The translations under genes and the position numbers were made by a program. 64,000 nt of DNA from a virus. The DNA lies in the IMG/VR virus record IMGVR_UViG_3300047320_000210, positions 19,922 to 83,921 of that record. One strand, written 5' to 3'. A model generated the notes under the pieces. It saw nothing but the letters and a program-made list of their open reading frames with translations, had not been told where the DNA came from and ran no database searches. Positions 1 through 49,029 of this stretch are shown here, piece by piece (the stretch's first letter is position 1; each line of letters opens with the position of its first letter).

Positions 1-281
1 ACCCGATCAACCTGCGCCCGGATCTGGAACTCGAAGCGTTCAAGACCATGCAGCAGGCCCGCACCCTCGAATTGCTTTCCGAAGGGTTCCTCACCGACGA
101 CGAAGCCGCTTGGGATCTGGGCACCGGCCCCCGTGCGCCGGCCGCCCCGCCGCTGTCCGGCACCGGCTTTCGCCGGGGCAGCAAGGGCATCGACGCCACC
201 AACGCCAGTCCGAATGCCGATCCGCAGGGCCGCGCCCTGCAATCCAACGAACCGAAAAAAGCCGGGGGAGCCAGCCAATGA
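1..281 (+). CDS. Portal protein, C-terminal part (truncated by window start)
   Basis: Frame open from the window edge; the stop overlaps the protease ATG (ATGA at 278-281). Position upstream of protease and capsid genes; typical low-complexity portal tail. Confidence 0.6.
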   Translation, partial: PINLRPDLELEAFKTMQQARTLELLSEGFLTDDEAAWDLGTGPRAPAAPPLSGTGFRRGSKGIDATNASPNADPQGRALQSNEPKKAGGASQ

Positions 282-1774
282 GCAAGCCGCGCCAGCGCAG
301 CCAAATGCCTCGTGGCCAGATCCTGCAGCTTGGGGATTTCTGGTACGGCGACGACCAAAGCATGCTCAGCGCCCGTCAGGCGCTGGTGCAGCTGGCCGCC
401 ATCGATCCAAAGCTTTACGTCGGGGACGACAGCGAAGAACCGGAAGACTTCCCCGATTACGCGTACATGCTGACCCGCCACTCGGATGTGGCCGTGCTCT
501 CGCTCAGCGGGAGCATGGTTAGCAAGGAAACCTTCTGGAATCGCTACGTCGGCCTGGTCTCGTATCAGGAAGCGCGTAACGCCGCGATTGTCGCCGCCGA
601 GGCCGGGTGCCGCGGGCTGTTGCTCGACATCGACACCAATGGCGGCAGCGCCGAAGGCATCGGCGAATTGAGCGACTTCCTGTCCGAGTTCGACCGCACC
701 GTCATGCCGGTCTTCACCTACACCGGCACCAAGATGCTCTCGGCCGGCTACTGGGTCGGCTGCGTCGGCCGCAGGGTTTTCAGTTCGTCGATGGCCAACA
801 GCGGCTCGATCGGCGTGGTGAGCGCACACATCAGTTACGCCCGGATGCTCAAGGAACAGGGCATCGACGTGACCATGTTCCGCCAAGGCGAATTCAAGGC
901 ACTTGGTTCGCCCTATGAAACGTTGGATGACAAAGCAAAGGCTGACATCGAAGCGCGGATGAAGAATTTCTACGAACCATTCCTCAGTCACGTTTCCGCC
1001 AACCGGGGCATCGCCATTCCAGCGCTGATCGAAACCGCAGCGGAAGGCAGGGTCTTCATGGGCTCTGACGCCGTGAAAGCGGGGCTAGTAGATGAGATCA
1101 CCACATTCGACAAGGCGGTTTCCGCCGTGATCAGCCTGGTGGGCGCTCGACAGCCAACGGTCTCTGTACCCCTCCCATCGACCTCCAACGTAGGTATGGA
1201 TTCTATGAAACGGCATCTGAACGACGCAGGCCTTGCGGCCGTGCAGTCGGGGCTGGCTGAAAAAACCGCCCTGGCTGACCCGAAGCTTTCCGAAGAAGTG
1301 AAGGACAAAACCCCTGAAGAACTGGCGACCGAAGAAGCGGCAGCCGCCGCCGCTTTGGCCGAGAAAGATCCGAAGGTCGAGCCCGAAGCCACTCCGGCAC
1401 CGGCGGCAAAAGCTGAGCAGCTGACGGACCAAACCTTGGACAAGATCATCGCCCTGTCGGGCGAATTGGCCGAGACCAAGTCCGAGCTGAAGCGCCTGCA
1501 AGCCAGTGAGCACGAACGTGCGGCCAGCATGGGCACCCTTATGAAAATTTGCGGTGACGCCATCAACAAAATGGAACTGCCACTGAGCCGCAGCCCGACC
1601 AGCACTGCGGGCATGTCCGCCGAGACCCTGATCTCCACCTACCACCGAACCCTCTCCGACTTTAACGGGCGGATGAAGATCGGCGCGCAGGCGGAAGTGC
1701 CGGGTGACAGCGACCTCGGGGGTGCACCCAAGGCGACAGCCTACGTGCCCGGCGCGGACTGCGTGAAGCTTTAA
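278..1774 (+). CDS. S49 (SppA/ClpP-like) capsid maturation protease with C-terminal scaffold
   Basis: LDIDTNGG, SAGYW, GSIGV, GEFKALGSPYE and GRVFMGSDAVKAGLVD S49 motifs; acidic/coiled-coil C-terminus. Start moved to ATG 278 (GGGGAG RBS). Confidence 0.9.
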   Translation: MSKPRQRSQMPRGQILQLGDFWYGDDQSMLSARQALVQLAAIDPKLYVGDDSEEPEDFPDYAYMLTRHSDVAVLSLSGSMVSKETFWNRYVGLVSYQEARNAAIVAAEAGCRGLLLDIDTNGGSAEGIGELSDFLSEFDRTVMPVFTYTGTKMLSAGYWVGCVGRRVFSSSMANSGSIGVVSAHISYARMLKEQGIDVTMFRQGEFKALGSPYETLDDKAKADIEARMKNFYEPFLSHVSANRGIAIPALIETAAEGRVFMGSDAVKAGLVDEITTFDKAVSAVISLVGARQPTVSVPLPSTSNVGMDSMKRHLNDAGLAAVQSGLAEKTALADPKLSEEVKDKTPEELATEEAAAAAALAEKDPKVEPEATPAPAAKAEQLTDQTLDKIIALSGELAETKSELKRLQASEHERAASMGTLMKICGDAINKMELPLSRSPTSTAGMSAETLISTYHRTLSDFNGRMKIGAQAEVPGDSDLGGAPKATAYVPGADCVKL

Positions 1775-28894: not shown

Positions 28895-30171
28895 TTGCTG
28901 ATCGCCAGGATGCGTCGCGGCCGGGTGCAGGCCACGTTCAGGCATTGCAGGGATTCCAGGTAGTTTTTGTTCAGCAGGATGTCAGCGGAGTCGACGAACA
29001 CGGACTCGTAGGTCGAGCCCTGCGCGCGGTGGGCGGTGATCGCGTGGCTGGGGCGCACGTCGTGGATGGCTTCCTTGGCCTTCCAGAACGCCGGCCAGCC
29101 GCCGCCCGCCTTGGCGTTGTTGGACAGGTCGATGAGCAGGCGCTTGTGGGCGCGTTCCGAGCTTTCATGGATGACCCAGCAGGTCACCAGCATGTGGGCT
29201 TCCAGTTCCGGCTGGACCTCGACGCGGTAGCAGGTCAGTTCGGAGAACACCGGGTGCTGCTGGACATCGATCGAGAACACCGTGCCCTCTTCGTCCGTGG
29301 TCATGAGTGTCTCTTTGCCGTCCGGGGACATGATCGGCTGGCAGACCACCACCCGCTCGCCCGGCTGGAACGGGGCCTCGGCGGCGAGCTTGGCGCCATA
29401 CATGGCCTCGCGGATCATGCCGTTGTACATGGCCACGGTGTCGTTGCGCCAGGCGATCACCTTGATCGAGCCGGGGTCCTTCGCGTAGCTGTCGCTGGTG
29501 AAGGCGTCGACCGCCTTGGCCCGCAGCTTCTTGTAGTTGAGCAGGTAGACCCCACCCTTCTCGTCGTTTGCGCTGAACAGGTTCAAGGACACCCCGTGCA
29601 GGATGCACTCACGCATGTGCGTGGCCATGGCCAGAATCTGGTTGTCGTGGCGCTCGACCTTGGTCAGCTCACGGCGGTAGCCGATGTCGAACACCGGCGA
29701 CTGTTCCTCCCCCACCGGTGGCAACTGGGTGCGGTCGGCCATGAACAGGAACTTCACCCCTTCGGTGCGGGCGGTGCGCTCGATGTGGTACATCAGCCCG
29801 TTGTTGGCCATCGAGCCTTCGTCGACGATCACCACGTTGTAGGCGCTGGCCTGGTTGAAACCCTCGGCTGCGCGCACCTGCTTGACCTCGCCGCTGTTGT
29901 CCATGCGCAACCCGAGCAGGGAGTAGATCGTGCGGGTCGGCACCATCCCCTGCAGCTCGGTCTCGCACATCTGCTTGAGGACCTTGGTCGCCTTGTTGGT
30001 CGGCGCGGTCATCACTACGCTCTGGCGCGTCTCGCGGCAGAAGGTCTGCGCGCTGGTACTTTTGCCCGTGCCGGCGCGGCCTTCAAGCATGAAATACGAC
30101 TCTTCGCTCTCGGCGAAGGTGAGCATTTCATCCACGGCATCGCGCTGCTGGTCGTTCAGTTGAATAGTCAT
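28891..30171 (-). CDS. Dda/RecD-like SF1B helicase
   Basis: LNDQQ, GRAGTGKS, APTNKA, DEGSM, QLPPV, HRAQGSTY and NVACTR motifs. Confidence 0.92.
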   Translation of the reverse strand: MTIQLNDQQRDAVDEMLTFAESEESYFMLEGRAGTGKSTSAQTFCRETRQSVVMTAPTNKATKVLKQMCETELQGMVPTRTIYSLLGLRMDNSGEVKQVRAAEGFNQASAYNVVIVDEGSMANNGLMYHIERTARTEGVKFLFMADRTQLPPVGEEQSPVFDIGYRRELTKVERHDNQILAMATHMRECILHGVSLNLFSANDEKGGVYLLNYKKLRAKAVDAFTSDSYAKDPGSIKVIAWRNDTVAMYNGMIREAMYGAKLAAEAPFQPGERVVVCQPIMSPDGKETLMTTDEEGTVFSIDVQQHPVFSELTCYRVEVQPELEAHMLVTCWVIHESSERAHKRLLIDLSNNAKAGGGWPAFWKAKEAIHDVRPSHAITAHRAQGSTYESVFVDSADILLNKNYLESLQCLNVACTRPRRILAISK

Positions 30172-33100
30172 GCGACCCACCCCTCTTTGGCCCACTGGTC
30201 GAACAGCGCTTCAACCTTGCGCTGCGACGGTCGATCCCCCAGTTCGTTCTGGCTGGCGTCGTACCAGTTGCGCCCCACCGACACCTCGGCCAGCATCGGG
30301 ATGACGTGGCCCGGCGGGGTGAGGTTCATCAGGTCCTGAGCGCGGGATGCGAACTCGAACACGTTGTCGATCGGCACCGAGTTGACCAGTTCGTCGTACA
30401 CCGGCGCGATCAGGTGCGAGCGGGTCTCTTCGTAGAGCTGGGTGTGGTGGGCCTTGGTCAGCACCACCTTGAGGATGTCGGCGGCGCAGCCCTGGATCTG
30501 GTGGTTGTTGGTCTGGCGTTCTGCGCGGGCGCGCAGCGAACCGTCGCGGCTGAGAATGTTCGGGTCGCAATGTTTGCGGGTGCCGAAGGCGGTGGTGATG
30601 TACCCCTGCCGCTTGGCCACGGCGATGTTTTCCTGCTGCCACGGCGCGAGGCGCGGGTAGCCGGCGAACACGCCGTCGATGATCTGCTGGGCGAACACCT
30701 GCGGGACGCCCAGTTTCATGCCCATGCTGAAGGCCTGACCGCCGTAGATGATCAGGAAGTTGACGGTCTTGGCCATCTTGCGGATCTTGACGATGACCTT
30801 GCCCAGCGGCAGCGCGAGGTCGCCGACCATTTCATAGACGTGGTCGCCGCCGTGCAGCAGGCTGACGAACTGCTCGTAGTCCATGCTGCCGGTTTCATCG
30901 AACGCCAGGCGCTTCAGGATCTCGCTACCCAGCGCCTTCTCCAGCACCTTGCCGGCAAACGTACAGCCGGTGACGGAGTGGATGTCCTTGAAGATCGCCC
31001 GGGTCATGCCGTCGTCGTCGACGTAGGTGCCGCCGCCGGTGTAGGCCTCGATCAGCACCGGGTCGCGCGACTCGCTGCCGGTAATGCGCAGTTCCTGCCC
31101 GCTGAAGTCGAGGGCGACGATGACGTGCCCCTTGAACCGCGGCAGGAAGATCGAGCGCAACGGCCCCTTGCTCACCGCGAGGATGTTCAGGCTGCTGCCG
31201 GCCGGGCGCCGCGTCTTGGTCCCGCAGTTGCGCGTGCCGGGGTGCCACACGCCGGTGGCTGGGTGCCGCCAGTGCGGGTACTTGGCGTAATACAGCGACT
31301 GCCGGGTCATGCACTCCTTGGTTTCCAGCAGCAGCTGGAGCACTTCGCGGCGCCAGTCGCCCTCGGGGCAGTCCTCGGCGATGGCCGCCTGCATGGCGTC
31401 CTTGTCCGTTCCGGGGTTGCCTTCCAGGCCGAGTTCGTCGCGCCGGCTGCCCTTCTGCGGCAGGGTGCGCAGGCGCACCGGCAGCTGCAGTTTGCAATAC
31501 AGCAGTTCCTGCATCTGCTTGGGCGAGTTCAGATTGAGTTCGTCGCCGGAGATTTCGCGCACACCGTCCTGGTGAATCACCTCGCTCTCGATGAACGCCT
31601 TCAGCGCAAGGAACGCCTCGCCTTTGCGGGTGCGGATCTCGCCGGCGGCGGCCTGCACCAGCTCGACCAGCCGCGCCGCGCGGGGGTCGGTGCTGCCGCG
31701 TTGCTTGAGGTAGTTCTGGCTGGCCACCAGCCACGCGGTGATGCCCTTGGCACTGACGCCGGCCATGGCCACCGGCAGCCCGACCAGATCCGCCACGCGG
31801 GTGAAGCCCTTGTCGGTGGCGGTGAACTCGGCCGGGCAGAAGGTTTCGCAATACGGCCGGTACACCGAGCCCTGCCGCCAGCGCTCATAGGTCTCGGCGA
31901 CCTTGGCCTGGGCCTGCGCCCGGTTCAGTTTGTCGTGCAGGTGCAGCTGCAGCAGGTTGTTGCCCTCGGCCAGCCGCAGGCCCTCGGCCCCGGTCTCGTC
32001 GATGTCCTTGCAGTGCTCGGCCAGCAGGCTGTGCATGCGTTCGTTGTTGTTCTTCACCACCTTCGCATCGGCGTCGGCCAGCTCGGTCATGCCCGGGCTG
32101 TCGAGCTGGACCCCGGTCTCAAAGCTGCGGTTGAACGGGTGGACGGTGAACCGGTCTTCTTCGTAGGCGAACTTCCATTGCTGTTCGAGTTTGAGGATGA
32201 AGAAGAACAGCACCGCCAGCCGCGCGGCGACAAAGGCGTCATCGCAGGCGTAGTGCAGCACCTGGGCGCCGGTCAGGTCGCGCATGTCGCGCGCGCCGAA
32301 CTGGGCCATCAGGCTCGCGTACTCGACCTGGTCGTACTTCAGCCACTGGCGCGCGTGCGCCTTCAGGCCCTGCTCCATGTTCTCGTCGACGTAGGTGCCG
32401 AGCATCTGCGTGCACACCGGGCCGTCGAGCTGGAAATCGAGGTCCTGTTTGGTCAGCTGCTCTTCGAAGCGGGTGTTGTGCGCGACGAAGTCGAGGCCTG
32501 CGTCTTCGATGTCGAGCAGCAGGTCGACCAGCCGCACCTTGTCCAGGTTGGCCGTGTCGCGGTGCTGCACCGGCAGGTAAAAGGTGTGCTGCAGGTTCGA
32601 CCCGTAGGTGAACGAGCCGCCGGTGAGGCGGGCCGACAGCACGTCGACGTAGCTCTTGACCGTGTCGGGCAAGGCCGGGCGCCAGTCATGGCCGAGCGAG
32701 TCATAGGTCTCGTAGTCAAAGCTGGCCAGCGGCGTGTCGCGCAGGCCCTCGGCATACGCGGCGTGCACTTCTTCCCAGTTGTCCGGGGTGACCAGGGTCA
32801 TGGTCGGCATGTGCGGCGCGAAGTGCTCGAACAGGTCCGCATCGCCGGCGATCTTCAGCAGGTCCTGCACTTTGGTCGCGTCCGGTAAGCGCACGTACCA
32901 TTCCGGGCGGATGATCTTGCGGCCCAGCGTGCCGTACAACAGTTCCGGGTGCAGCCCGGCCAGCGTGTACATCAGGCGCCAGGTGGTGCGGTGCTCGTAG
33001 ATTTTGCGCAGCACCTTGCAGCCGGTGGCCTCGACCGCTTCCAGCAGAAAGGTGTAGTCGTTGCTGGCCACGCAGGCTTCCAGCTGCTCGATGCCGTCCC

Positions 33101-33734
33101 AGCCATAGGTGTCGACGAGGAACTTAAAGGCCGCCACCCCGACCTGCGGCACGCCGCCGTATTCGTCGGTCTTGTCCCCCACCAGCGACTTGTAGATGCG
33201 CACGTAGCGGACGGGGTAGCCTTCGAAGTCGTCGGCGGGCAGGGCCTTGACCAGCACCAGGGTGTTGTCGTCGGCCAGCTGCAGCAGGTCGCGGTCGACC
33301 GTGTGCACCAGCTTCTGGAGTTCGGGGAAGTAGCGGCAGAAGGCACCGATCACGTCGTCCGCCTCGACCCCTTCCACGCGCACGTTGAACGCGCCGCAGT
33401 AGGCGAGCAAGGCCTTGGCCATGTCGAGCATCTTGGTGAGCTGCGCCTCAACGGCGGGGTCTTTCTCTTCGGCGTGGCGCTTGGCTTTGTAGCCGGCGAA
33501 CAGGCCTTCGCGGTAGTTGTTGCCGCCATCCCACACCGCGACGATGTTGAGCGGGGAGAAATCGTGAAGCAGGGGAATGAGATATGTGTCGAGGAAGCCG
33601 CGCAGACCATAGCCGGCCGAGTTCACCGGCTTGTCAGTCAACGGGCTCAATTTGGCGTCGGGGTCGATGCCCCGGTGGTAGGCGTGCATGAGCAAACCAC
33701 GCACGTCGAGCAATGCAAGTCCTTGAATTTTCAC
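30168..33734 (-). CDS. Family A DNA polymerase with N-terminal 5'-3' (flap) nuclease and 3'-5' exonuclease
   Basis: YKAKR, EADD, DRDLLQL, GDKTD (5' nuclease); DYET, HN, YACDD (3' exonuclease); DFSGQELR, RKMAKTVNFLIIYG, VYDE (polymerase motifs A/B/C). Confidence 0.93.
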   Translation of the reverse strand: MKIQGLALLDVRGLLMHAYHRGIDPDAKLSPLTDKPVNSAGYGLRGFLDTYLIPLLHDFSPLNIVAVWDGGNNYREGLFAGYKAKRHAEEKDPAVEAQLTKMLDMAKALLAYCGAFNVRVEGVEADDVIGAFCRYFPELQKLVHTVDRDLLQLADDNTLVLVKALPADDFEGYPVRYVRIYKSLVGDKTDEYGGVPQVGVAAFKFLVDTYGWDGIEQLEACVASNDYTFLLEAVEATGCKVLRKIYEHRTTWRLMYTLAGLHPELLYGTLGRKIIRPEWYVRLPDATKVQDLLKIAGDADLFEHFAPHMPTMTLVTPDNWEEVHAAYAEGLRDTPLASFDYETYDSLGHDWRPALPDTVKSYVDVLSARLTGGSFTYGSNLQHTFYLPVQHRDTANLDKVRLVDLLLDIEDAGLDFVAHNTRFEEQLTKQDLDFQLDGPVCTQMLGTYVDENMEQGLKAHARQWLKYDQVEYASLMAQFGARDMRDLTGAQVLHYACDDAFVAARLAVLFFFILKLEQQWKFAYEEDRFTVHPFNRSFETGVQLDSPGMTELADADAKVVKNNNERMHSLLAEHCKDIDETGAEGLRLAEGNNLLQLHLHDKLNRAQAQAKVAETYERWRQGSVYRPYCETFCPAEFTATDKGFTRVADLVGLPVAMAGVSAKGITAWLVASQNYLKQRGSTDPRAARLVELVQAAAGEIRTRKGEAFLALKAFIESEVIHQDGVREISGDELNLNSPKQMQELLYCKLQLPVRLRTLPQKGSRRDELGLEGNPGTDKDAMQAAIAEDCPEGDWRREVLQLLLETKECMTRQSLYYAKYPHWRHPATGVWHPGTRNCGTKTRRPAGSSLNILAVSKGPLRSIFLPRFKGHVIVALDFSGQELRITGSESRDPVLIEAYTGGGTYVDDDGMTRAIFKDIHSVTGCTFAGKVLEKALGSEILKRLAFDETGSMDYEQFVSLLHGGDHVYEMVGDLALPLGKVIVKIRKMAKTVNFLIIYGGQAFSMGMKLGVPQVFAQQIIDGVFAGYPRLAPWQQENIAVAKRQGYITTAFGTRKHCDPNILSRDGSLRARAERQTNNHQIQGCAADILKVVLTKAHHTQLYEETRSHLIAPVYDELVNSVPIDNVFEFASRAQDLMNLTPPGHVIPMLAEVSVGRNWYDASQNELGDRPSQRKVEALFDQWAKEGWVA

Positions 33735-33767
33735 GGTCCACCCCTTTCCTTAGACGACAAGAGAGCA

Positions 33768-33794
33768 TGCCGGCGGGCGTCGTGCCCGCCGGCA
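33768..33794. terminator. GC-rich hairpin between SSB-like gene and polymerase
   Basis: TGCCGGCGGGC-GTCGT-GCCCGCCGGCA; weak U-tract. Confidence 0.5.
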
Positions 33795-33815
33795 AACCAC
33801 AGCTAGCCGTGAGGC

Positions 33816-34601
33816 TTAGGGGATCAGCGCGACAAATTTAAAGTCCCATGGGTAGAAGGGGAATTTCGCGGCGGTGACTTTCTCGCCACGGAAGAAGTGC
33901 GTCAGGTAGCCGTTAGGGTTGCGGCCGGTGCGGCTGCGCAGCTTGAACTTATAGCCAGCCCATCGGCCAATCGACATCGGCGACACCTGGACCACCACCG
34001 CATCGCCTTCCAGCTCCTTGCAATCGGCGGATTTCACGGTCTCGACCATCACGAACAGCTCGGCGTATTCCTTCAGCTCAGGCTTCAAGCCTTCGGCGCG
34101 CCACTCCGCGACGTGGGCACCGGCCTCGGTTTCCACGTTGTTGAAGTCTGCCTTGTCGTAGGCGAACACCACGTCGGCCTCGTCGTCGTTGCCGCAGCGC
34201 ATGGCAAATTTCGCCTTCGACTGCAGGACGGTGCCGATGAAACCTTCCGTGGCCGAGAACGACTTGGTGGTCCCTACCAGCTGGAACTCCCCGTCTTTCA
34301 GGACGATGTTGGTGAAACTGGTGAAGTCGATGTGTCCCCCACCGAACCCCGCGTCTTCCATTTCCTGCATGGTTGCGGACTGTCCGCCGACGCGCGCCAC
34401 TTGACCTTCAGCGCGCGGGGCGACGTCGGTGCGGGTGGATTGCGGTGGCGGTTCGGCTGAGAGTTCAGTTTCCAGGACCGCCGGTCCCTCCAACACGGAG
34501 GCCTCGTCCTGCAAGGTGGTGTCGTTGTCCTGCGCCGCGTTGGCCTCGGCGGTCTGGACAGCTTCCTTGCTTACAGCATTACCATCTTTGATGAGTGGCA
34601 T
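33816..34601 (-). CDS. Acidic replication protein, possibly ssDNA-binding
   Basis: AGGAG RBS; lies between helicase and polymerase; function inferred from position only. Confidence 0.45.
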   Translation of the reverse strand: MPLIKDGNAVSKEAVQTAEANAAQDNDTTLQDEASVLEGPAVLETELSAEPPPQSTRTDVAPRAEGQVARVGGQSATMQEMEDAGFGGGHIDFTSFTNIVLKDGEFQLVGTTKSFSATEGFIGTVLQSKAKFAMRCGNDDEADVVFAYDKADFNNVETEAGAHVAEWRAEGLKPELKEYAELFVMVETVKSADCKELEGDAVVVQVSPMSIGRWAGYKFKLRSRTGRNPNGYLTHFFRGEKVTAAKFPFYPWDFKFVALIP

Positions 34602-34702
34602 TTTTGATACTCCTAGGTCTTCAGCTTCAACTTCAGCTTGTCGTTCTCAGTGCGGCTGTTCTCGCCGCTTGTTGTTCCGGCATGCCGGAATCCTGCACGG
34701 GC

Positions 34703-36235
34703 TTACGCCACGTTATAAAAGTGCCGCAGGGTGCGAGGATCGAGCGTGACCTGCCCGATGTCCTGATCCCTTCTGAGCATGTTCTTGATCGCATTCGGCG
34801 CGAGGGTTTCCAGCGCCTTGAGCACGTAGATGTTGCACTGCCAGAGCTGGCCCGGCCGGACGACCCGGTCCATCGCCTGTTTGAATTCGCCCGGCGAGCC
34901 GGTCGGTTCGGCGAAAATTACCGTGTGGCTGACCGACTGGAAGTTGAAGCCGGCGCCGGCGGATCGCGGGTTGGCCACCAGCAGGCGGCAGGTCGGGTCG
35001 TTGAGGAACTTGTCGGTGTTGGCCTGACGCTGGGTCGGCGACAGGTCGCCGTTCATGGTCGCCGGGTTCAGGTCGGCGAAGAAGGTGGCGTAGCGCGCCA
35101 CGGTCTCGCGGAAGTTGACGAACAGGATCACCTTCGATTCCGCGCCCACGCCCTCGACCAGCTCGCGGCAGGTGGCCAACACCTGGTTGTCGATTTTCTG
35201 CCCGTCCTGCAGGAACAGTTCGGGGCAGGTCACGACCTGCAGGGACTTCTGTCGCAGGTCCTGTTCCTGCAACGCGGTGAGGATGGTGCCGTCACCCATG
35301 TCGAGGAAACGTTCCACGGTCAACTTGCGGTACAGCTCGCGGTGCGCCGGGCTCAACTTGATCGGCACTTCGGTGATGATCGGTTCCTTCAGGTCACGCA
35401 GCTCGGGGATCGCGCTTTTCAGCACACGGCGGGCCTTGGCGTACAGGTTGGCCGACAGTTCGGCGTGGCGCTGGTAGCCGGCCAGCGTGCGTACCTTGCT
35501 GATGCGCTTGCCCCCCTTGGTGATCTTCGGCACCTTCAGGCGGATCAGGCGGAAGCGGCAGTGCCGGCGCAGGAACTGGTCGTAGGAGTCATACGCCCCG
35601 GGACTGAGGAAGGTCATCAGGGTGTAGCAATCGGTCAGGTAGGTGTGCATGGGCGTCCCCGTCATCGGGAAAAACGCCGTGTCCGGGGCCAGCGGGTCGC
35701 CGACGTACTCGCCGATGCGCTTGGCCAGCGTGCACTCCGGGGCCTTCCACTTCTGGCTCTCGTCGGTGATCAGCACGTCGTAGCCCTGCGCCTTTAGGGT
35801 CTGGAACAGTTTCTGGTGGGCGAACAGCTCATAGCTGAGCACCATCATTTCAGGCCAGCCGTCGACGTCCCACTGGGCGAACAGCTTGGCGCGCTTGGCC
35901 GGGGCTTCGTCCAGCACATGCACCTTCACGTACTTGTCGATGCCGTGGAACTCTTCGACCACGGACTCGGCGAACTGGTAGATCAGGGTGGCCAGCGTCA
36001 GCACCACGACCTTGTTGCCCATGCCGATGTAGTGCAGCGCGGCACCGACCACCGGAATGGTCTTGCCGGCGCCGGTCTCATCGAGCAGGCCGTACCACTG
36101 GTGGTGCACGCACAGGCTCAGGCCGTCGACCTGGGTCTGGAACGGCGGGTGCTTCAGTTGCACGAACGGCGCGAACGCGGGATAGCGGTCGATGCCGGCG
36201 CGCTGGAAGTATTCAGCTAAAGTGGGACCCTGCAT
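34703..36235 (-). CDS. SNF2-like SF2 helicase
   Basis: DETGAGKT, DESQ, MTGTP, SAGAGFNFQ and QAMDRVVRPGQ motifs. Confidence 0.9.
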   Translation of the reverse strand: MQGPTLAEYFQRAGIDRYPAFAPFVQLKHPPFQTQVDGLSLCVHHQWYGLLDETGAGKTIPVVGAALHYIGMGNKVVVLTLATLIYQFAESVVEEFHGIDKYVKVHVLDEAPAKRAKLFAQWDVDGWPEMMVLSYELFAHQKLFQTLKAQGYDVLITDESQKWKAPECTLAKRIGEYVGDPLAPDTAFFPMTGTPMHTYLTDCYTLMTFLSPGAYDSYDQFLRRHCRFRLIRLKVPKITKGGKRISKVRTLAGYQRHAELSANLYAKARRVLKSAIPELRDLKEPIITEVPIKLSPAHRELYRKLTVERFLDMGDGTILTALQEQDLRQKSLQVVTCPELFLQDGQKIDNQVLATCRELVEGVGAESKVILFVNFRETVARYATFFADLNPATMNGDLSPTQRQANTDKFLNDPTCRLLVANPRSAGAGFNFQSVSHTVIFAEPTGSPGEFKQAMDRVVRPGQLWQCNIYVLKALETLAPNAIKNMLRRDQDIGQVTLDPRTLRHFYNVA

Positions 36236-39038
36236 GGTTACCTCCCATGCCCAGCAAACTGGTGTCGATGTCCTTCGCCTGCAATTCCTGCAGCGATAGG
36301 AACAGCATAGGTCGACCGCCGCCCATCCCGGCGAACGGGGCGTATTTGACGAAGTACGGTTCTTCGTTGATCAGCTTGACGAACTGCGCGCCGCTGTTGA
36401 TCACCGGCGTGCTGCGTTCGTCGACGTTGCAATAGCGGGTGTAACTGGCGTGGGCCAGCACCGGGTCGAGCACCAGATACTCGGGCGTGACCGCGTAGTG
36501 CAGACCATCGGTGAGGTACACGTTGCCCTTGGTGGCTTCCTCGGCGCTGCGCGAAATGGCCACGATGACCGCGATCTTCTGCATCACCAGGTCGATCTCG
36601 CTCTGCACGTAGCCGTCGCCGTTGCTGGTGAAGCGGGTGACCACCATCTTGATGATCGGTTCGAGGGTCTTCAGCGCGTTGAACAGGTGCAGTTCCTCGC
36701 AGACCTGCTGCAGTTTCCACAGGCCGACGAGGATCACCTGCAAGGAGTAGCGCGGGCGGTCGTCCATTTGCTCGGGCAGCAGCAGGTCGGCCTTGTCCAT
36801 CAGCGCCTCGATCTCTTCGGGCGGGGTGGTCAGGGCCACGGCCATGATCGCCTTGCCCAGCTTGCGCAGTTCCTCGCGGTTCTTGTTGGCATGGTAGAAG
36901 TGCTCGCGGCAGTGGGCGCGCTTGAGTTTGGTCAGGTGGATCTGCACGCTGCGTTCCTGAATCGCCGGCACCTCGATTTCCTGTTCGGAAATCACAATCA
37001 GCGGTGAGGACAGCGGGATGGCAATCGCTTCGGCGCTGGAGCGGCCCATGTGGCCACGGCCGATGCGGCCCTTGAGGGTCGACTCGCCGTTCCACGCCTG
37101 CTTGATCCGTTCGCCGACGTCCTTGTAGGCCATGGTGGTCATCTTCGACTTGTTGAATTCCTCGATCACCCGGGGGATGGTCGTGGTGCTCGACAGGTAT
37201 TCGAGCATCCCGTAGTGCGAGGTCGACGGGGCGCTGACCCCGCTGTCCTTGAGCATGTAGTCGGTGCCGTTGAGCCAAGTGATCAGCCCGGCGGTCTTGG
37301 ACTTGCCGGAGCCGGCGCTACCCCACAGGCAGAGGACCGGGAACTGGCTGTACAGGTGCATGAAGTGGGTCTTGAAGTGCGCCGCGATGGTCCAGCCGAC
37401 CATCAGCCCGATCTCGTGCTTCTGGTTGATCTTCAGCAACCGGTGCAGGGCCTGGTCCACCGCCTCGTCAGCGCGTTCCGCCATGGCGGTGTGCGCGAAG
37501 TACGGCCGGGCCAGCAGGTTGCCAAGGAACTGGTGGGTGCCGCGCACCTTGACCGAGTTGACGCTCATGTCCGGTTCCACGTAAGTGAACACCGGGCTGT
37601 TGTCGACGAAATCCAGGTGGACCCCGGCGGTGTAGACCTGAAAAATCTCGCCCACGTCCTGGTCCTCCCGAAACACAGCAATCTTGATTTTCTGGATGTC
37701 GAGGTCCGTGCCCTGAAACGTCAGGTCGGTGATGCCTTCGAGTTCTCGCAGAAAGGCCGAGCGGCTAGAGAACGCCGGCTCTTTGAAAATGATCTTGCCC
37801 AGGTCCACGCCGTCCTTCATCACCGACATGCGGGTGCCGACCCGGCGCGGCCGGGTGCCGTCCTGCGGCACGTCGATGAACACGTCCACCGGCTGCAGGA
37901 TGAAGTTGCTGATGCGCCGCTTGCCGTCACCCTGACGGATGTAATAGCCGTCCGGTTCCGCCACCGCGCACAGGCCGGCGTCCGGGTTGCCGTCCTTGTT
38001 GGTACCGGTCTCGATCGCGCAGCCTTCACACGGGCGCTTGCTCAGCAGCGAGCGGATCGCGTTGCAGCCGAAGCTGAAGGTCGGGGTGTGTTCGACGTAG
38101 CGGATCTGCGCTTCGATGTGGTCGCGGCGCAACTTCGGCGTGTTGTACTTGCTCGACTTGGCGCTGCTGGCCAGCCGCGCGGCGAGGCTTTCGGCCACGC
38201 TCTGCGACACCCGGGCGCGCACGATGTAGGTGGCCAGCTGGGTCGCGGCCTGGTTGTAGGAGGCGTCCGCCTTCAGCGAGTCGTTGTCGCACAGCATCTG
38301 GATGCACGCCGGCACCGGTTCGCGGATGGCTTCCATGTCCGCCGACGAGGCGATGATCACCAGCTTCGGCTTGGCGTTGACGCGCTTCTTGGCCTCTTCA
38401 AACAGGGCCTTGAGTTCGTGTATCACCAGCCCCTGCGGGTCGTCGACTTCGACCACGCGCGGCGCCTGGACCAGTTCGCGGTAGCGGTCGACGGTCAGCT
38501 CGGCCAGTTCCTCGGCGGTCACCGGCACCCGGTACTTGCCGTCATGCCGCTGCAGGTTGACGATGCGGAAACTGTTGCCCCGGCCGCTGCTGTACACCGA
38601 GAAGTCGAGGCCGATGACGAACAGGTCGCGGGCCATTTCCTTGTAGATTTCCGGCAGCCGCAGGGTGAAGCGGCGCGCGGCGAACAGCGCTTCATTGACG
38701 AGGATGTGCAGGCCCTTGCTGCCCGACAGGTAGATTTCGATGCAGCCCTTCGGCACGCCCATGCGGGTCAGCTTGCCAAGCAGTTCCTGGCCGCTGCTGA
38801 TCGCCTGACCGAGGTCGTCCTTGCAGTCGATGTCAAAATACAACGGCCCGCGGTAGCCGATCTTGTCGCGGTTGCGCGGGATCTCGGGGTCAGTGCCGTC
38901 GCTGACCATCTGGTTCAAGGCAAGGATCGTCAGCTTTTTCGCGCCCTGCGCCTTGGCCAGTTCGACCGGGTCTTCTTCACCCTGACTGGAAAGCAGGAAC
39001 CAGGCGTCGTGCTCCGACCGCTGATAGTAGTGATACAT
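36213..39038 (-). CDS. AEP primase fused to a Cys-rich domain and a C-terminal P-loop helicase
   Basis: YFDID and SGSKGLH (AEP motifs); PAC..FGC..PCEGC; Walker A GSAGSGKS. Confidence 0.85.
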   Translation of the reverse strand: MYHYYQRSEHDAWFLLSSQGEEDPVELAKAQGAKKLTILALNQMVSDGTDPEIPRNRDKIGYRGPLYFDIDCKDDLGQAISSGQELLGKLTRMGVPKGCIEIYLSGSKGLHILVNEALFAARRFTLRLPEIYKEMARDLFVIGLDFSVYSSGRGNSFRIVNLQRHDGKYRVPVTAEELAELTVDRYRELVQAPRVVEVDDPQGLVIHELKALFEEAKKRVNAKPKLVIIASSADMEAIREPVPACIQMLCDNDSLKADASYNQAATQLATYIVRARVSQSVAESLAARLASSAKSSKYNTPKLRRDHIEAQIRYVEHTPTFSFGCNAIRSLLSKRPCEGCAIETGTNKDGNPDAGLCAVAEPDGYYIRQGDGKRRISNFILQPVDVFIDVPQDGTRPRRVGTRMSVMKDGVDLGKIIFKEPAFSSRSAFLRELEGITDLTFQGTDLDIQKIKIAVFREDQDVGEIFQVYTAGVHLDFVDNSPVFTYVEPDMSVNSVKVRGTHQFLGNLLARPYFAHTAMAERADEAVDQALHRLLKINQKHEIGLMVGWTIAAHFKTHFMHLYSQFPVLCLWGSAGSGKSKTAGLITWLNGTDYMLKDSGVSAPSTSHYGMLEYLSSTTTIPRVIEEFNKSKMTTMAYKDVGERIKQAWNGESTLKGRIGRGHMGRSSAEAIAIPLSSPLIVISEQEIEVPAIQERSVQIHLTKLKRAHCREHFYHANKNREELRKLGKAIMAVALTTPPEEIEALMDKADLLLPEQMDDRPRYSLQVILVGLWKLQQVCEELHLFNALKTLEPIIKMVVTRFTSNGDGYVQSEIDLVMQKIAVIVAISRSAEEATKGNVYLTDGLHYAVTPEYLVLDPVLAHASYTRYCNVDERSTPVINSGAQFVKLINEEPYFVKYAPFAGMGGGRPMLFLSLQELQAKDIDTSLLGMGGNHAGSHFS

Positions 39039-44212: not shown

Positions 44213-44485
44213 CTAACCTCCAAAACTTAGCTGATTACCGGACAGGTCCCAGACCTGCGCAGCCCACAGCAACACGTCTCGCAAGGGTAAGCCAGTCTGT
44301 TCGGCGAGGGGTCGGTAGTGGTCCAACATCTTCTGCGCACCCTGGTCGCGAAAGTGATATTCGAAGGCGTCGTTACGAAAGTACAGCACCGACGGCAGCA
44401 TAAAATCGACGTCCAGGTACTGCCCCTCGCCGCGCACTTTTCGACAGGTGGCAAGGATCTGCGTGGTCAGATTAGCGTCGTTCAT
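44213..44485 (-). CDS. Hypothetical protein
   Basis: GAGG RBS; ATGA coupling. Confidence 0.6.
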   Translation of the reverse strand: MNDANLTTQILATCRKVRGEGQYLDVDFMLPSVLYFRNDAFEYHFRDQGAQKMLDHYRPLAEQTGLPLRDVLLWAAQVWDLSGNQLSFGG

Positions 44486-45039
44486 GGTCGGCCCTCGCTC
44501 GCGGGAATCTCCCCGTAGCAGCATTCACAGCTCAGTGGCTGGGTGTAACGCAGTTCGGTGCCGACCACCCGCAGGGTGTACGACTCGGGGTGCCGCAGAC
44601 CGAAGATCAGGTCGCGCAGCTGTTCACGCACGCACTGGCGGCAGACCGCCGTGCCTTCGTCGGTGAAGAACACGTAGCGGTGGCCCTCGACGCTGTCTTC
44701 CATGAAGCGCAGCGTGGCGCGCAACTGGTGGCCGTCGACGATCTGGTAGAACAGCTCGCGGTAGCCGGTGCGCAGGCGCTTGCCGGTGAGCCGGTCGTAG
44801 AGGTCGCCGTGGACCTCTTCGAAGTAGCCCTGGCCGTGCCAGAAGCCCACCAGCCAGCCGAAGATCGCATCGGCGCGCTGCGGGGTGTTGCGGTAGATCG
44901 GCGCCTGTCCTGGTGCGCCGACCATCCACTGGCCGAGGTGCTGGCCGCCCATCACCGGCCGGGGTGAGAACGGCGCCGTCGCGGGGTCCGGCAAGGGGCT
45001 CAGGTCGAGACACGCATGTACACGCGACGGGTAGCCCAT
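44482..45039 (-). CDS. Hypothetical protein with CxxC pairs
   Basis: GGAGAAGGA RBS; CRQC and CECC. Confidence 0.65.
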   Translation of the reverse strand: MGYPSRVHACLDLSPLPDPATAPFSPRPVMGGQHLGQWMVGAPGQAPIYRNTPQRADAIFGWLVGFWHGQGYFEEVHGDLYDRLTGKRLRTGYRELFYQIVDGHQLRATLRFMEDSVEGHRYVFFTDEGTAVCRQCVREQLRDLIFGLRHPESYTLRVVGTELRYTQPLSCECCYGEIPASEGRP

Positions 45040-45051
45040 GTCCTTCTCCCT

Positions 45052-46068
45052 TTACTGGTCCATGAATACTTCTATGAAGGCTTGCGCGGCTTTCGCGTTG
45101 ACGGCATTGCCATAGGCGCGCAGGCGTCCCACTCGGGCGGGTATCCCATGAGCCAACGGGAATGTTCCGGCCTCAACTGGCCGCCACCTTCCATCTCGGC
45201 AGCCGAGCCAGTCAGCGTCTCGCCAGAAGCTGTTAACCGGGCCGGGGTGCACAGGTAGGCCTGCCGCGGCAGCTGGTCGTTGCGTTCCTTGCCGTCCCGC
45301 GTGGCGACCATGCCCGGGGTGTCCTTGTGGTCCCGGGTGGTCGGCGTGGTCCAGCCACATAGGTGATAGGCCACCACGTCCACCGTCTTGCGCGAGCTGT
45401 CGTTGTTCCCCGCCGCGTTGTTCCCGTTCTGTGCCGGGGTTCCCGCCATCGGGGTCGGCCAGCCCGCCAAGGTGACCGCTGCGGCCAAGTCCGGCCCGTG
45501 GTTGCGCATCGCTTCGCGCATCCCACCCTCGGTTGAGCGCACGCCCTTGTCCGCCAGACTGGCGGTTGGCGTAGGCCACCCAGTAAAGCCGGTCACGGAT
45601 GTGCGGCGCGCCGACCCCCGCAGACGGGAACGGGACGGCCCCGAAGGCGTAATCCAGGGCTTCCAGGTTAGCGTGTACAAGGTCGACCCAAGGGTCGACA
45701 GGCTTGCTTGCAACCTGCTCTCCAAAGATGACTGCAGGCTTTGACTGCTCGATGAGCCAGGCAAAACTTGGCCAGAGGTGTCTTGGGTCCTCAAACCCCG
45801 CTCCAGCGCCTGCCGCGGAGAAAGGCTGACACGGACAAGATCCAGACCATACAGCCCGGTCATCAGGCCATCCAGCGGCGCGGAGGGCATAAGACCAGCC
45901 CCCAAGGCCGGCGAAGAAATGGCACTGGGTGAACCCGAACAGGTCACGGGGCTCGACATCTTCGATACTCCTTTCGTCCACGACACCGGGGGCGATCAGG
46001 CCCGCCGTGATCAGGTTGCGCAGCCACTGCGCGGCGTAGGGATCGATCTCGTTGTAATACGCGGCCAT
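45052..46068 (-). CDS. DNA (cytosine-5) methyltransferase, catalytic (alpha) polypeptide
   Basis: NEID (II), FFAGLGG (I), SCPCQPFS (IV), GEQV (VI), APHIRDRLY (VIII), YGNAV (X); motif IX is absent from this frame. Confidence 0.9.
   Translation of the reverse strand: MAAYYNEIDPYAAQWLRNLITAGLIAPGVVDERSIEDVEPRDLFGFTQCHFFAGLGGWSYALRAAGWPDDRAVWSGSCPCQPFSAAGAGAGFEDPRHLWPSFAWLIEQSKPAVIFGEQVASKPVDPWVDLVHANLEALDYAFGAVPFPSAGVGAPHIRDRLYWVAYANRQSGGQGRALNRGWDARSDAQPRAGLGRSGHLGGLADPDGGNPGTEREQRGGEQRQLAQDGGRGGLSPMWLDHADHPGPQGHPGHGRHAGRQGTQRPAAAAGLPVHPGPVNSFWRDADWLGCRDGRWRPVEAGTFPLAHGIPARVGRLRAYGNAVNAKAAQAFIEVFMDQ
45072..45986 (-). CDS. Nested out-of-frame ORF: putative MTase beta polypeptide (TRD repeats plus motif IX)
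   Basis: Three W(P/T)TP units and GQLRPEHSRWLMGYP (motif IX-like); the true start codon is uncertain. Confidence 0.7.
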   Translation of the reverse strand: MSWTKGVSKMSSPVTCSGSPSAISSPALGAGLMPSAPLDGLMTGLYGLDLVRVSLSPRQALERGLRTQDTSGQVLPGSSSSQSLQSSLESRLQASLSTLGSTLYTLTWKPWITPSGPSRSRLRGSARRTSVTGFTGWPTPTASLADKGVRSTEGGMREAMRNHGPDLAAAVTLAGWPTPMAGTPAQNGNNAAGNNDSSRKTVDVVAYHLCGWTTPTTRDHKDTPGMVATRDGKERNDQLPRQAYLCTPARLTASGETLTGSAAEMEGGGQLRPEHSRWLMGYPPEWDACAPMAMPSTRKPRKPS

Positions 46069-46071
46069 GCC

Positions 46072-46290
46072 CTACCCCCAGCGCTGCAGCTGAACGTCGA
46101 TGATTTCGTTCTGCGGGTAGTGCTGGGCCAGCCAGAGAAAGGCATCGCCATAGTCCGGGGCTACCACGGGCACCTGCCAGCGTCGACCGTCCGGCGTTTC
46201 CAGGGTGGCCAAAAAGTAGCTGTCACGCAGCGCGAACGCCCGTGTCCACCAGTCTTGCAGCCGCACTTTCGCCTGCAGAATCCAGAACAT
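46072..46290 (-). CDS. Small hypothetical protein
   Basis: Fills the gap between genes; GAGG upstream. Confidence 0.5.
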   Translation of the reverse strand: MFWILQAKVRLQDWWTRAFALRDSYFLATLETPDGRRWQVPVVAPDYGDAFLWLAQHYPQNEIIDVQLQRWG

Positions 46291-46299
46291 ACCCAGCCC

Positions 46300-46824
46300 T
46301 CAAGCGCGGTTGAGAATGTCGTTGATCCGGTCGACCAGCACAGAGGTGGAGACCTTGCGCGTGCCCTTGACCAGCCGACTCTGCAGCAGGTTGCACAGCT
46401 GGCGCAGCAGCGGCTCGGCCTGGGCGAAAGTGCGTTCCAGACGGCGGGTCATGGAGGTTTCGGGGAACTGCCAGCCCTCGAACGGCTGGCCGCTGATCAG
46501 GCGCACGGTGGGGGCCAAGGGTGGCCAGACCGCTTCGGGCACCTGACTCTCGGGGTTGAATTTTTTCGGGGTGTAGGCCTCGATCACGTTGCGCGACAGC
46601 ATCGAGCAGTCGACGTCACGGCCGCCGCCTTCGAAGCCGGGCAGCGCGACGATGCTGTACGTGGTGTCACGGTGCTTGGCTTGCACCGCCACCGCCAGAA
46701 TCTCGGTGCCGCAGGGCAAGGTGTGCCGAAGGGTGCGCAACGTCAGCGGGATGGCCTGCTGCGCACGCGGGGCGGGTGGGTTGGCGGGGGGGAGATCCAT
46801 GCAAACCAGTTGTTCCATTAACAT
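46300..46824 (-). CDS. Hypothetical protein
   Basis: AGGAG RBS; 174 aa. Confidence 0.65.
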   Translation of the reverse strand: MLMEQLVCMDLPPANPPAPRAQQAIPLTLRTLRHTLPCGTEILAVAVQAKHRDTTYSIVALPGFEGGGRDVDCSMLSRNVIEAYTPKKFNPESQVPEAVWPPLAPTVRLISGQPFEGWQFPETSMTRRLERTFAQAEPLLRQLCNLLQSRLVKGTRKVSTSVLVDRINDILNRA

Positions 46825-48043: not shown

Positions 48044-48280
48044 CTACAGGGAACCGTAGCCGTCTTTTTCAAGCGAGGCCTTGATCAGCCCGCTCAGGGT
48101 TTTCGGACCTTCATCGTCTTCTTTGTTCTGCAGCCGACGTTCCTCCAGTCGACGCACCAGCGACTTCGGTAGGCTGATCGACAGCGACACCGGCACGTCC
48201 TTGACCCCGTCGTAGGGGATGTCGGACAGCTTTTTCTGCAGCCGCGCGGCGACGTCGGTCGCGGTTTCGGACTTAGACAT
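48044..48280 (-). CDS. Small ribbon-helix-helix partition partner (ParG-like)
   Basis: Overlaps the parA stop; VSLSISLP strand followed by two helices. Confidence 0.65.
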   Translation of the reverse strand: MSKSETATDVAARLQKKLSDIPYDGVKDVPVSLSISLPKSLVRRLEERRLQNKEDDEGPKTLSGLIKASLEKDGYGSL

Positions 48281-48914
48281 GGAACACCTCGGTCATCAGT
48301 TCATTGATCTCTTGGATCGCGTCTTTGTTGCGTAGCTCCAGCACCGACAGCCCGAGGTCGGTGCTGTCCTTGTAGACCTTGCGCGAGCGGCCGATGCTGT
48401 TGAGCACTTCGAATTCAGGGAAGGCCGCCAGCCTCTTGAGGAATTTCGCCCGTTCGCTGACCCTGCCAGCGCTGTGCGTGCTGGCGATGGCCTGATAGAC
48501 CAACACCCGCAGCTTGGGGTTTTCCGGCTTGATTTCGGCGTACTGTTTGCGCAGCTGGCGCAGCGTGTCGAGGTCGAAGTCGCTGCACTGGTGCGGCGCG
48601 ATCACCACGTCCGCCACCACCATGGAGGTGATCAGCTCGGCGCTGTTGCGCCCGGCGACGTCGACCAGCACATGGTCGTACTGGGCGGCGAGACGGGTGA
48701 CGGCGTCCACCAGATTGCCGTACTTCTGCGTGAGGGGCACCTTCGGCAGGTGGTTGCCCGCTTCCCGGTGGCCATACCACAGGTGACCGCTGGCCTGGCC
48801 GTCGGCGTCGAGCACGCAGACGTTCTTGCCCTTGCGCATCAGCCCCACCGCGAGGTTCACGCAGGTGGTGGACTTGCCGGCGCCGCCCTTGTTGCACCCG
48901 CACACGACGATCAC
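48273..48914 (-). CDS. parA: ParA-family Walker-type partition ATPase (type Ib, no N-terminal HTH)
   Basis: KGGAGKST deviant Walker A; LDADGQ; VLVDVAG. GTG start at 48914 with AGGT RBS. Confidence 0.9.
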   Translation of the reverse strand: MIVVCGCNKGGAGKSTTCVNLAVGLMRKGKNVCVLDADGQASGHLWYGHREAGNHLPKVPLTQKYGNLVDAVTRLAAQYDHVLVDVAGRNSAELITSMVVADVVIAPHQCSDFDLDTLRQLRKQYAEIKPENPKLRVLVYQAIASTHSAGRVSERAKFLKRLAAFPEFEVLNSIGRSRKVYKDSTDLGLSVLELRNKDAIQEINELMTEVFHV

Positions 48915-48966
48915 GGGGTCATACCTGCAAAGTTCATGTTTCTTCTCCCGGGGCGTGAAAAACCAG

Positions 48967-49029
48967 TGGGTACTGTGTACCCATCGCGGGAGCGTAGCCA
49001 GAGCGCTGCGAATAAGCAATTGCTTATTC
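48967..49029 (-). promoter_or_regulatory. Putative parA promoter with two palindromic operators
   Basis: TTGCTT-N17-TACGCT on the - strand (49019-48991). The -35 lies in a perfect 20-bp palindrome GAATAAGCAATTGCTTATTC (49010-49029); TGGGTAC-TGT-GTACCCA (48967-48983) is downstream. Confidence 0.6.

Follow-up and report, generated by a model that had tools for sequence, protein, structure and literature searches.

Two naturally two-chain DNA (cytosine-5) methyltransferases have been described. In M.EcoHK31I (YGGCCR), two chains are needed, and beta is nested in another frame of the alpha gene; alpha carries motifs I-VIII, the recognition domain and motif X, and beta carries motif IX (PMC2836561, PMC3404938). 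That beta is described as a small subunit whose N-terminal 37-50 residues matter for association. M.AquI is split in or near the variable region into two assembling polypeptides, of which the small subunit holds the distal variable region together with motifs IX and X, and no overlap of frames is mentioned for it (PMC3404938). A different precedent is provided by the enzymes of the Bacillus temperate phages SPR, phi3T, rho11s and H2, where one enzyme is described as protecting against many restriction systems (PMC12707154, EcoSal Plus review). Here we analyzed a window of 64,000 nucleotides, that is, the whole stretch from position 19,922 to position 83,921 of the IMG/VR virus record IMGVR_UViG_3300047320_000210, a contig from a rhizosphere metagenome. 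At 45052-46068 on its minus strand lies a methyltransferase gene (alpha) that contains a second gene (beta) in the +1 frame.

The locus very likely encodes a two-chain DNA (cytosine-5) methyltransferase translated from the same DNA in two frames. This had been the original prediction, made from the sequence of the window, and it is supported by four lines of evidence: both frames are conserved across homologous loci, codon positions show selection in both, conserved start signals precede beta, and structure prediction has the two chains bind each other. In the proposed mechanism, alpha residues 1-168 would supply the part that binds S-adenosylmethionine and carries out catalysis (motifs I, IV, VI and VIII), a linker of ~105 residues would follow whose sequence is irrelevant but which must hold no stop, and the last 64 residues would include the motif X helix. 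Beta would have its own Shine-Dalgarno sequence and an internal start codon (ATG 45959), both of them encoded within alpha codons 32-38. By wrapping onto the two ordered parts of alpha, it would make up the small lobe of the enzyme that recognises DNA. Encoded in the replication or early region of a phage, such an enzyme would shield the phage DNA from host restriction by methylation. The features of the locus are as follows.

45052..46068, minus strand: alpha coding sequence (CDS), an open reading frame (ORF) with an ATG start at 46068, 338 aa plus stop, with a catalytic part of the large domain, then an overprinted linker and last a C-terminal segment that bears motif X
45072..45959, minus strand: beta CDS, 295 aa plus stop, +1 frame, the whole gene within alpha
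45968..45973, minus strand: AAGGAG, Shine-Dalgarno sequence for beta, 8 nt before ATG 45959
45565..46068, minus strand: N-domain of alpha (codons 1-168), which holds motifs II-like, I, IV, VI and VIII, delimited by homolog identity and by the predicted local distance difference test (pLDDT)
45565..45828, minus strand: first doubly constrained stretch, alpha codons 81-168 over beta aa 45-132, from third-position entropy, both proteins conserved
45247..45564, minus strand: alpha linker, codons 169-274, unconserved, predicted disordered, stop-free, set by the beta modules
45252..45581, minus strand: beta module array, from motif positions
45567-45581, 45450-45464 and 45342-45356, minus strand: module heads GWPTP, GWPTP and GWTTP
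45115..45246, minus strand: second doubly constrained stretch, alpha codons 275-318 over beta aa 239-282, from third-position entropy
45138..45182, minus strand: motif IX-like stretch of beta, GQLRPEHSRWLMGYP, aa 260-274, from pattern likeness
45100..45114, minus strand: YGNAV (aa 319-323), motif X of alpha, just ahead of the C-terminal helix

The layout resembles that of M.EcoHK31I as published, in that beta lies wholly inside the alpha gene, in another frame of the same strand, with internal Met codons of the beta frame as starts, and in that alpha has motifs I-VIII plus motif X and beta has motif IX, for beta here at the level of a pattern. The recognition domain of M.EcoHK31I is assigned to alpha, whereas here the selected variable region is in the beta frame and is modular; and the N-terminus of its beta matters, whereas the first 43 residues of beta are unconstrained here. 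The two were compared by published description. Thus, the parallel with M.EcoHK31I drawn in the original prediction stands for the nested two-frame layout but not for the recognition-like region, which sits on beta rather than on alpha. In contrast to M.AquI as far as it is described, motif X returns to alpha here and the genes are nested. The Bacillus phage enzymes, in the published accounts, are likewise phage-borne orphans with several exchangeable recognition modules arrayed between catalytic motifs; unlike those single polypeptides, the present array is on a separate chain in the other frame, and each module also encodes a stop-free piece of alpha. The catalytic core of alpha is homologous to that of M.HhaI and M.HaeIII (PF00145), which are single chains, whereas the enzyme proposed here has two chains, its first strands precede motif I, and its beta is unrecognised by the Pfam model. 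In the open-access literature, we found no description of dual coding in this family beyond the precedent of M.EcoHK31I and M.AquI and general papers on overlapping genes. We read the family as a very widespread variant of the rare nested layout of the M.EcoHK31I type, with the array on beta and a linker in alpha. M.EcoHK31I may itself be a short relative of this family; if so, the placing of its recognition domain on alpha would have to be re-examined.

Conservation of the two frames was assessed in two sets of homologous loci. The alpha-selected set (n = 83) comprised the best 80 of 211 IMG/VR relatives and three phage records, and the beta-selected set (n = 80) comprised bacterial loci found with the beta profile, the best 80 of 413 stretches in species-representative genomes; keeping the best 80 favours intact copies in either case. 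In the alpha-selected set, beta was in the +1 frame of alpha in 83/83 loci and was open over at least 248 codons in 81/83, with a mid-gene stop in the other two (L042, L080); alpha was intact in 81/83. In the beta-selected set, alpha was intact in 78/80 (early stops in L092 and L121) and beta in 79/80 (broken in L119). The hosts of the latter set included Pseudomonas, Acidovorax, Comamonas, Massilia, Paraburkholderia, enterobacteria, relatives of Desulfovibrio, alpha-proteobacteria and a few metagenome-assembled genomes of other phyla. The guanine-plus-cytosine (GC) content of the loci ranged from 0.53 to 0.71. Within the alpha gene (82 loci), the longest open run had a median of 308 codons in the +1 frame, whereas the median was 60 for the +2 frame and 96-143 for the three antisense frames. 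A tblastn search of 50,697 phage records found alpha in 389 (163 at >=80% coverage) and the nested frame in 235 (61 at >=80% coverage) at the same loci, in phages of Escherichia, Salmonella, Klebsiella, Burkholderia, Pseudomonas, Xanthomonas and Rhodobacter among others. That both frames stay open and conserved across homologs was the test set beforehand for the two-chain proposal, and they do so in two independently ascertained sets.

Selection in both frames was examined in an alignment of 73 distinct loci, in which alpha was conserved over codons 1-168 and 275-338 and unconserved between them. The third positions of alpha, which are the second positions of beta, had an entropy of 1.28 bits over alpha codons 1-80, 0.85 bits over codons 81-168, 0.67 bits over codons 275-318 (0.29 bits over 301-310) and 1.47 bits over codons 319-338. 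Conservation of beta began at 'SLSPRQA', across from alpha codon 81, and ended at 'PEWDxCAP', across from alpha codon 318, and the silent sites of alpha are therefore constrained exactly where beta is conserved. In shared module types, differing codon pairs were synonymous in beta in 12920 of 20126 cases (64%) and in alpha in 916 of 20672 (4%), the beta share being inflated by the definition of the module clusters through beta identity. Variable sites in these modules fell on beta codon positions 1, 2 and 3 in 159, 124 and 279 cases, respectively. Variant contigs from an independent metagenome run carried 25 substitutions and no insertion or deletion over 45158-45717; 18 of the substitutions were synonymous in beta and 5 in alpha, and four of these five fell in the conserved parts of alpha. 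The earlier estimate of about 900 bp of dual-coding DNA was right in that both frames are open, but double constraint covers only ~132 codons (alpha 81-168 and 275-318). Sequence comparison indicates that the remaining codons are constrained in one frame and simply stay open in the other.

The middle of alpha had been described as looking like off-frame sequence, and this appearance is real: over codons 171-270 identity to homologs was 0.10-0.33, and pLDDT was 29-45 over residues 172-287. It was nevertheless free of stops in 73/73 loci, from which two loci with a broken alpha had already been left out, versus 11.1 expected from beta-synonymous shuffles (mean open probability 0.15), and the third frame over the same ~99 codons had a mean of 3.9 stops. 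We read the middle of alpha as an overprinted linker of ~105 residues whose sequence is dictated by the beta modules. An alternative is that three or more products are made, with the C-terminal segment of alpha produced or used separately through an internal start of translation, cleavage of the linker by proteases or a minor beta-to-alpha shift, and that long alpha is not the working form. Unconserved and predicted disordered linkers of this length are protease-sensitive, and in Pseudomonas phage PMG1 and locus L030 alpha is broken but its C-terminal piece stays open, as this alternative would have it. Stop avoidance is most simply explained, however, by ribosomes that read from the catalytic part of alpha through to the C-terminal segment, and we consider the separate production of that segment unlikely.

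The start of beta is marked by signals within alpha. The nested ORF of 304 codons that the original prediction had pointed out (45072..45986, minus strand, GTG start, +1 relative to alpha) is present, but comparison among the loci indicates that beta most likely starts at ATG 45959, giving 295 aa, and not at GTG 45986. A +1-frame ATG at alpha codons 37/38 (GAT G) was found in 65/73 loci. In a scan of alpha codons 1-130, +1-frame stops were common up to codon 35, with a stop at codon 19 in 71% of loci, and past codon 38 no position had a +1 stop in more than 5% of loci. Alpha codons 32-34 (GAA AGG AGT) spell AAGGAG. The GGAG and ATG signals of beta result from codon choice in alpha: D37 was encoded by GAT in 65/73 loci (background 38%), R33 by AGG or CGG in 49/73 (background 10.5%) and by AGG alone in 23/73 (background 1.6%), and S34 by AGY in 53/73 (background 22%). 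In most of the best 150 database relatives, position 1 of the beta profile was at or near residue 1 of the protein. Beta aa 1-43 overlap the motif I region of alpha without constraining its silent sites, and the first 43 residues of beta therefore look like a tolerated leader.

Double constraint and the beta start signals also bear on the possibility that one ordinary methyltransferase chain is made via two frameshifts, from the alpha frame (A) to the beta frame (B) after motif VIII and back before motif X, by sequencing error or programmed slippage. Such a chain of ~340 residues, with alpha 1-168 followed by the beta modules and motif IX and then by motif X of alpha, would show the canonical order of motifs I-VIII, variable region, IX and X. 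Sequencing error is excluded, as the two-frame layout recurs in 81/83 and 78-79/80 loci and the independent run had no insertion or deletion. For a gene decoded by a programmed shift, the criterion is constraint in one frame on each side of the shift site, whereas both frames are constrained in alpha codons 81-168 and 275-318. In detail, beta aa 44-126 lie upstream of the first shift, and yet they are conserved and constrain the wobble positions of alpha; conservation of beta thus extends ~85 codons upstream of any A-to-B shift point. Likewise, alpha 275-318 are conserved upstream of the second shift, ~45 codons ahead of any B-to-A shift point. In addition, beta has a conserved internal ATG and Shine-Dalgarno sequence, and the linker of alpha avoids stops. 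The double frameshift, which the original prediction had kept as its alternative, fails on these grounds and we regard it as highly improbable.

In a two-chain methyltransferase, alpha would be the catalytic chain. It carries YYNE (aa 4-7), FFAGLGG (51-57), SCPCQPFS (77-84), FGEQV (115-119), APHIRDRLYWV (154-164) and YGNAV (319-323), and all motif strings quoted in the original prediction, for either chain, were found where it had placed them. We take these six strings to be motifs II-like, I, IV, VI, VIII and X, a naming that alignments to M.HhaI support only in part. Motif VI reads EQV, in place of the consensus ENV. A motif IX-like stretch and a target-recognition region were absent from alpha. 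Alpha matched Pfam PF00145 with 48.2 bits (cut-off 22, E = 1.4e-12) over aa 75-170 only, NCBIfam TIGR00675 (dcm) with 34.1 bits, which is below the cut-off of 100.65, and phrog_363 over aa 1-336 (E = 1.5e-87). Invariant in 67 alpha sequences were C78, P79, C80, Q81, E117, Q118, R158 and R160; G320 and N321 of motif X and F52, A53 and G54 of motif I were invariant as well. Profile positions 71-170 aligned to M.HhaI 72-175 (E = 4.8e-16), and alpha 38-66 aligned to M.HhaI 4-32 at 0.7 bits only. Identity to homologs in the N-domain was 0.38-0.95 per 10-codon block, with most flank blocks at 0.7-0.95. By these comparisons, the catalytic core of alpha is homologous to that of monomeric C5 methyltransferases.

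AlphaFold modelling of alpha alone was confident in residues 1-170 and 320-338, with pLDDT of 50-96, mostly above 79, in blocks of the N-domain and 83-94 in the C-terminal helix (325-337). The model matched M.HhaI in VIA-align (Z 13.0, root-mean-square deviation 3.0, 161 residues aligned, alpha 1..338 on HhaI 35..321) and in Foldseek (E = 2.4e-07). Within aa 4-57 of alpha (45898-46059, minus strand), the first two strands (YYNE and VVDE) precede motif I. The model suggests that the start of the Rossmann-like fold may be circularly permuted, with the motif II/III strands ahead of motif I. The order II, I that had been proposed is thereby supported indirectly, because only 27 residues separate F52 from P79-C80 and because residue 1 of alpha aligns at HhaI residue 35. 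In three loci (L083 1501-2958, L094 1086-2954 and L155 1266-2879), the alpha frame extends to 486-622 codons, and in L094 the C-terminal segment is present twice; duplication, or fusion with downstream genes, may account for these cases.

With ATG 45959 as its first codon, beta opens with a leader (aa 1-43), to which a conserved N-domain (44-126) is joined; three W-x-T-P modules (127-236) come next, and after them a conserved C-domain (237-285). The N-domain ends in GWPTP and each module is headed by W-x-T/S-P; the motifs are GWPTP at aa 127-131 and 166-170, GWTTP at 202-206 and GQLRPEHSRWLMGYP at 260-274. The family form of the last, in the C-domain, is 'GGQLNPAHSRWLMGLPxEWD', with G259, Q261, L262, P264, H266, S267, R268, W269, L270, G272 and L273 near-invariant. 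We call this stretch motif IX-like from its likeness to the pattern of that motif; it gave no profile match. From its GTG start, the nested frame matched phrog_1008 over aa 51-294 (E = 1.4e-34) and phrog_31772 over aa 208-302 (E = 1.9e-38), both of which are named DNA methyltransferase. The number of modules varied among 138 distinct beta proteins: one in 2 proteins, two in 32, three in 69, four in 31 and five in 4. The 417 modules fell into 125 clusters, and a given type recurred at various positions and in arrays that differed in length; the three modules of the window all belong to the three commonest types. Judged from their sequences, the modules behave like exchangeable target-recognition cassettes, and for this reason the enzyme probably methylates several sequences. 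The multispecificity raised in the original prediction has this shuffling of 1-5 modules as its sole support.

Modelling of alpha together with beta, a check proposed at the outset, gave a confident complex, with an ipSAE of 0.91 in three runs compared with 0.00 for the best of three controls. Of 80 solved complexes, 58 attained that mark, as did 2 of 110 mismatched pairs, counts that hold only roughly here because custom alignments were used. At least 78% of contacts agreed among runs, and the pLDDT of the partner was at least 63. The predicted interface joined alpha 11-60, 100-168 and 273-338 with beta 43-167 and 237-285, which are the conserved parts, and avoided the linker of alpha and the leader of beta. 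The tightest contacts, with the least expected error, were predicted between beta 267-281 and alpha 15-24 and 319-326 (motif X); the motif IX-like stretch of beta lies against these parts of alpha, motif X included. The score may in part reflect the model's memory of single-chain C5 methyltransferases; a likeness of this kind would be expected of a split enzyme, but would be no proof that these copies bind.

Several results weigh against a two-chain enzyme. Beta had no match in Pfam or NCBIfam at E<=1, the beta profile and the last 64 residues gave only chance-level hits among PDB sequences (E 0.5-1.2), beta folded alone reached a pLDDT of 51.6, and its fold had no match among 48161 chains (best Z 3.4). 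The labels of target-recognition domain and motif IX for beta hence rest on position, pattern and the complex model. At the start of beta, 8/73 loci have no ATG at codon 37, carrying GAC there instead of GAT, and in four loci (L047, L057, L061 and L077) the usual ATG is followed immediately by a stop (locus position ~1610-1616), with another ATG four codons downstream; the beta start is thus not fixed and can move within the leader. In PMG1 (L003) and L030, alpha is broken beside an open beta. Alpha-synonymous shuffles left 152 codons of the +1 frame open on average, and the observed run beat all 200 shuffles in 32/82 loci and was reached by at least one shuffle in 50/82; this shuffle is a weak null because the middle of alpha is itself dictated by beta. 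The choice of the best 80 copies, the beta-based module clusters and the possible model memory described above count against it as well, and no RNA run was found to contain the stretch. We infer from the evidence above that beta is translated, that the dimer is the active enzyme, that the modules set its specificity and that its role is anti-restriction. As the gene lies in a phage and no nuclease was recognised among seven neighbouring ORFs, the enzyme is probably an orphan for self-protection from restriction; the anti-restriction role in the original prediction has this same basis.

That beta is a shadow ORF of GC-rich DNA, conserved-looking only via alpha, with alpha alone as the enzyme, is barely credible: the gene is 65% GC, the shuffles leave long open +1 runs and beta is missed by Pfam and NCBIfam, but the frame stays open at 53-57% GC (e.g. 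L057, L047 and Salmonella phage SW3), beta is the selected frame in the middle of alpha (64% vs 4% synonymous; 18/25 vs 5/25 among the variants), that part of alpha is unconserved and predicted disordered, and alpha without beta would have no variable region or motif IX.

A two-chain enzyme of this kind appears to be widespread. In a search with beta, 7261 of 8000 scored candidates matched at E<=1e-3; none of these had a Pfam domain, and they were named 'hypothetical protein' or 'methyltransferase'. With the beta profile, 19512 cluster representatives matched at E<=1e-3; a threshold of 1e-10 left 11815 of them and one of 1e-30 left 8055, the last being a lower bound of clusters at 50% identity. 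The ESM Atlas returned 'hypothetical protein' clusters, mostly viral, with a score of 0.96. PF00145 was found in 1 of 62 longer beta relatives, covering 24% of the query, so that in-frame fusion of beta with a catalytic part is not common; none of the best 150 representatives had beta in its C-terminal half. A related locus was present in 68 of 5426 complete E. coli genomes. In RefSeq, beta was never annotated in the two E. coli loci that we opened (L164, Ec1117, 595-1764; L165, C 236-04A, 595-1515), one of which was a single alpha CDS and the other two 'incomplete' pseudogene pieces. GenBank records showed alpha only in Salmonella phage SW3, beta only in PMG1 (1620-2381) and both nested CDSs in Xanthomonas phage PhiXhv-5 (L002, 1495-2514). 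Standard annotation was expected to half miss the pair, and pipelines indeed usually call one gene or mark the locus broken. The methylation capacity and anti-restriction potential of phages are under-read as a result, and beta proteins sit in databases as 'hypothetical'.

We suggest, tentatively and with some doubt, that the locus belongs to a very large unrecognised family of multispecific two-chain phage cytosine methyltransferases, which carry their cassettes on the nested subunit and whose catalytic subunit threads through the same DNA as a stop-free linker. Every recombining cassette must then satisfy two frames, since alpha has to be read through it. Beta is 888 nt long and lies wholly within alpha on the same strand, with selection acting on either frame. 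To our knowledge, such a pair would rank with the longest well-supported gene overlaps in DNA phages and prophages. It is no rarity, with thousands of relative clusters and 413 stretches in species-representative bacterial genomes. The locus offers a natural system for codon sharing by two proteins (~132 codons under double constraint), for a linker held only by stop avoidance and for the exchange of modular recognition cassettes under two-frame constraint.

In the window, alpha is tightly packed between ORFs at 46072-46290 and 44482-45039 (both minus strand): the upstream ORF stops 3 nt ahead of the alpha ATG, and the downstream ATG is 13 nt past the alpha stop. These two had no Pfam or PHROG match. 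Among seven neighbouring ORFs, none matched Pfam, one alone matched PHROG, with a function unknown, and no nuclease partner was recognised. The minus-strand block around the gene encodes a DNA polymerase (1188 aa), a helicase (510 aa), a primase (941 aa) and a ParA-like partition protein, and by its gene content the region appears to be where a phage or phage-plasmid keeps its replication genes. The replication-type genes lie at

30168-39038 and 48273-49019, minus strand: replication-type genes

An antisense ORF of 347 codons (45778-46821, plus strand) spans the N-terminus of alpha and two upstream genes and is probably a shadow ORF of GC-rich DNA.

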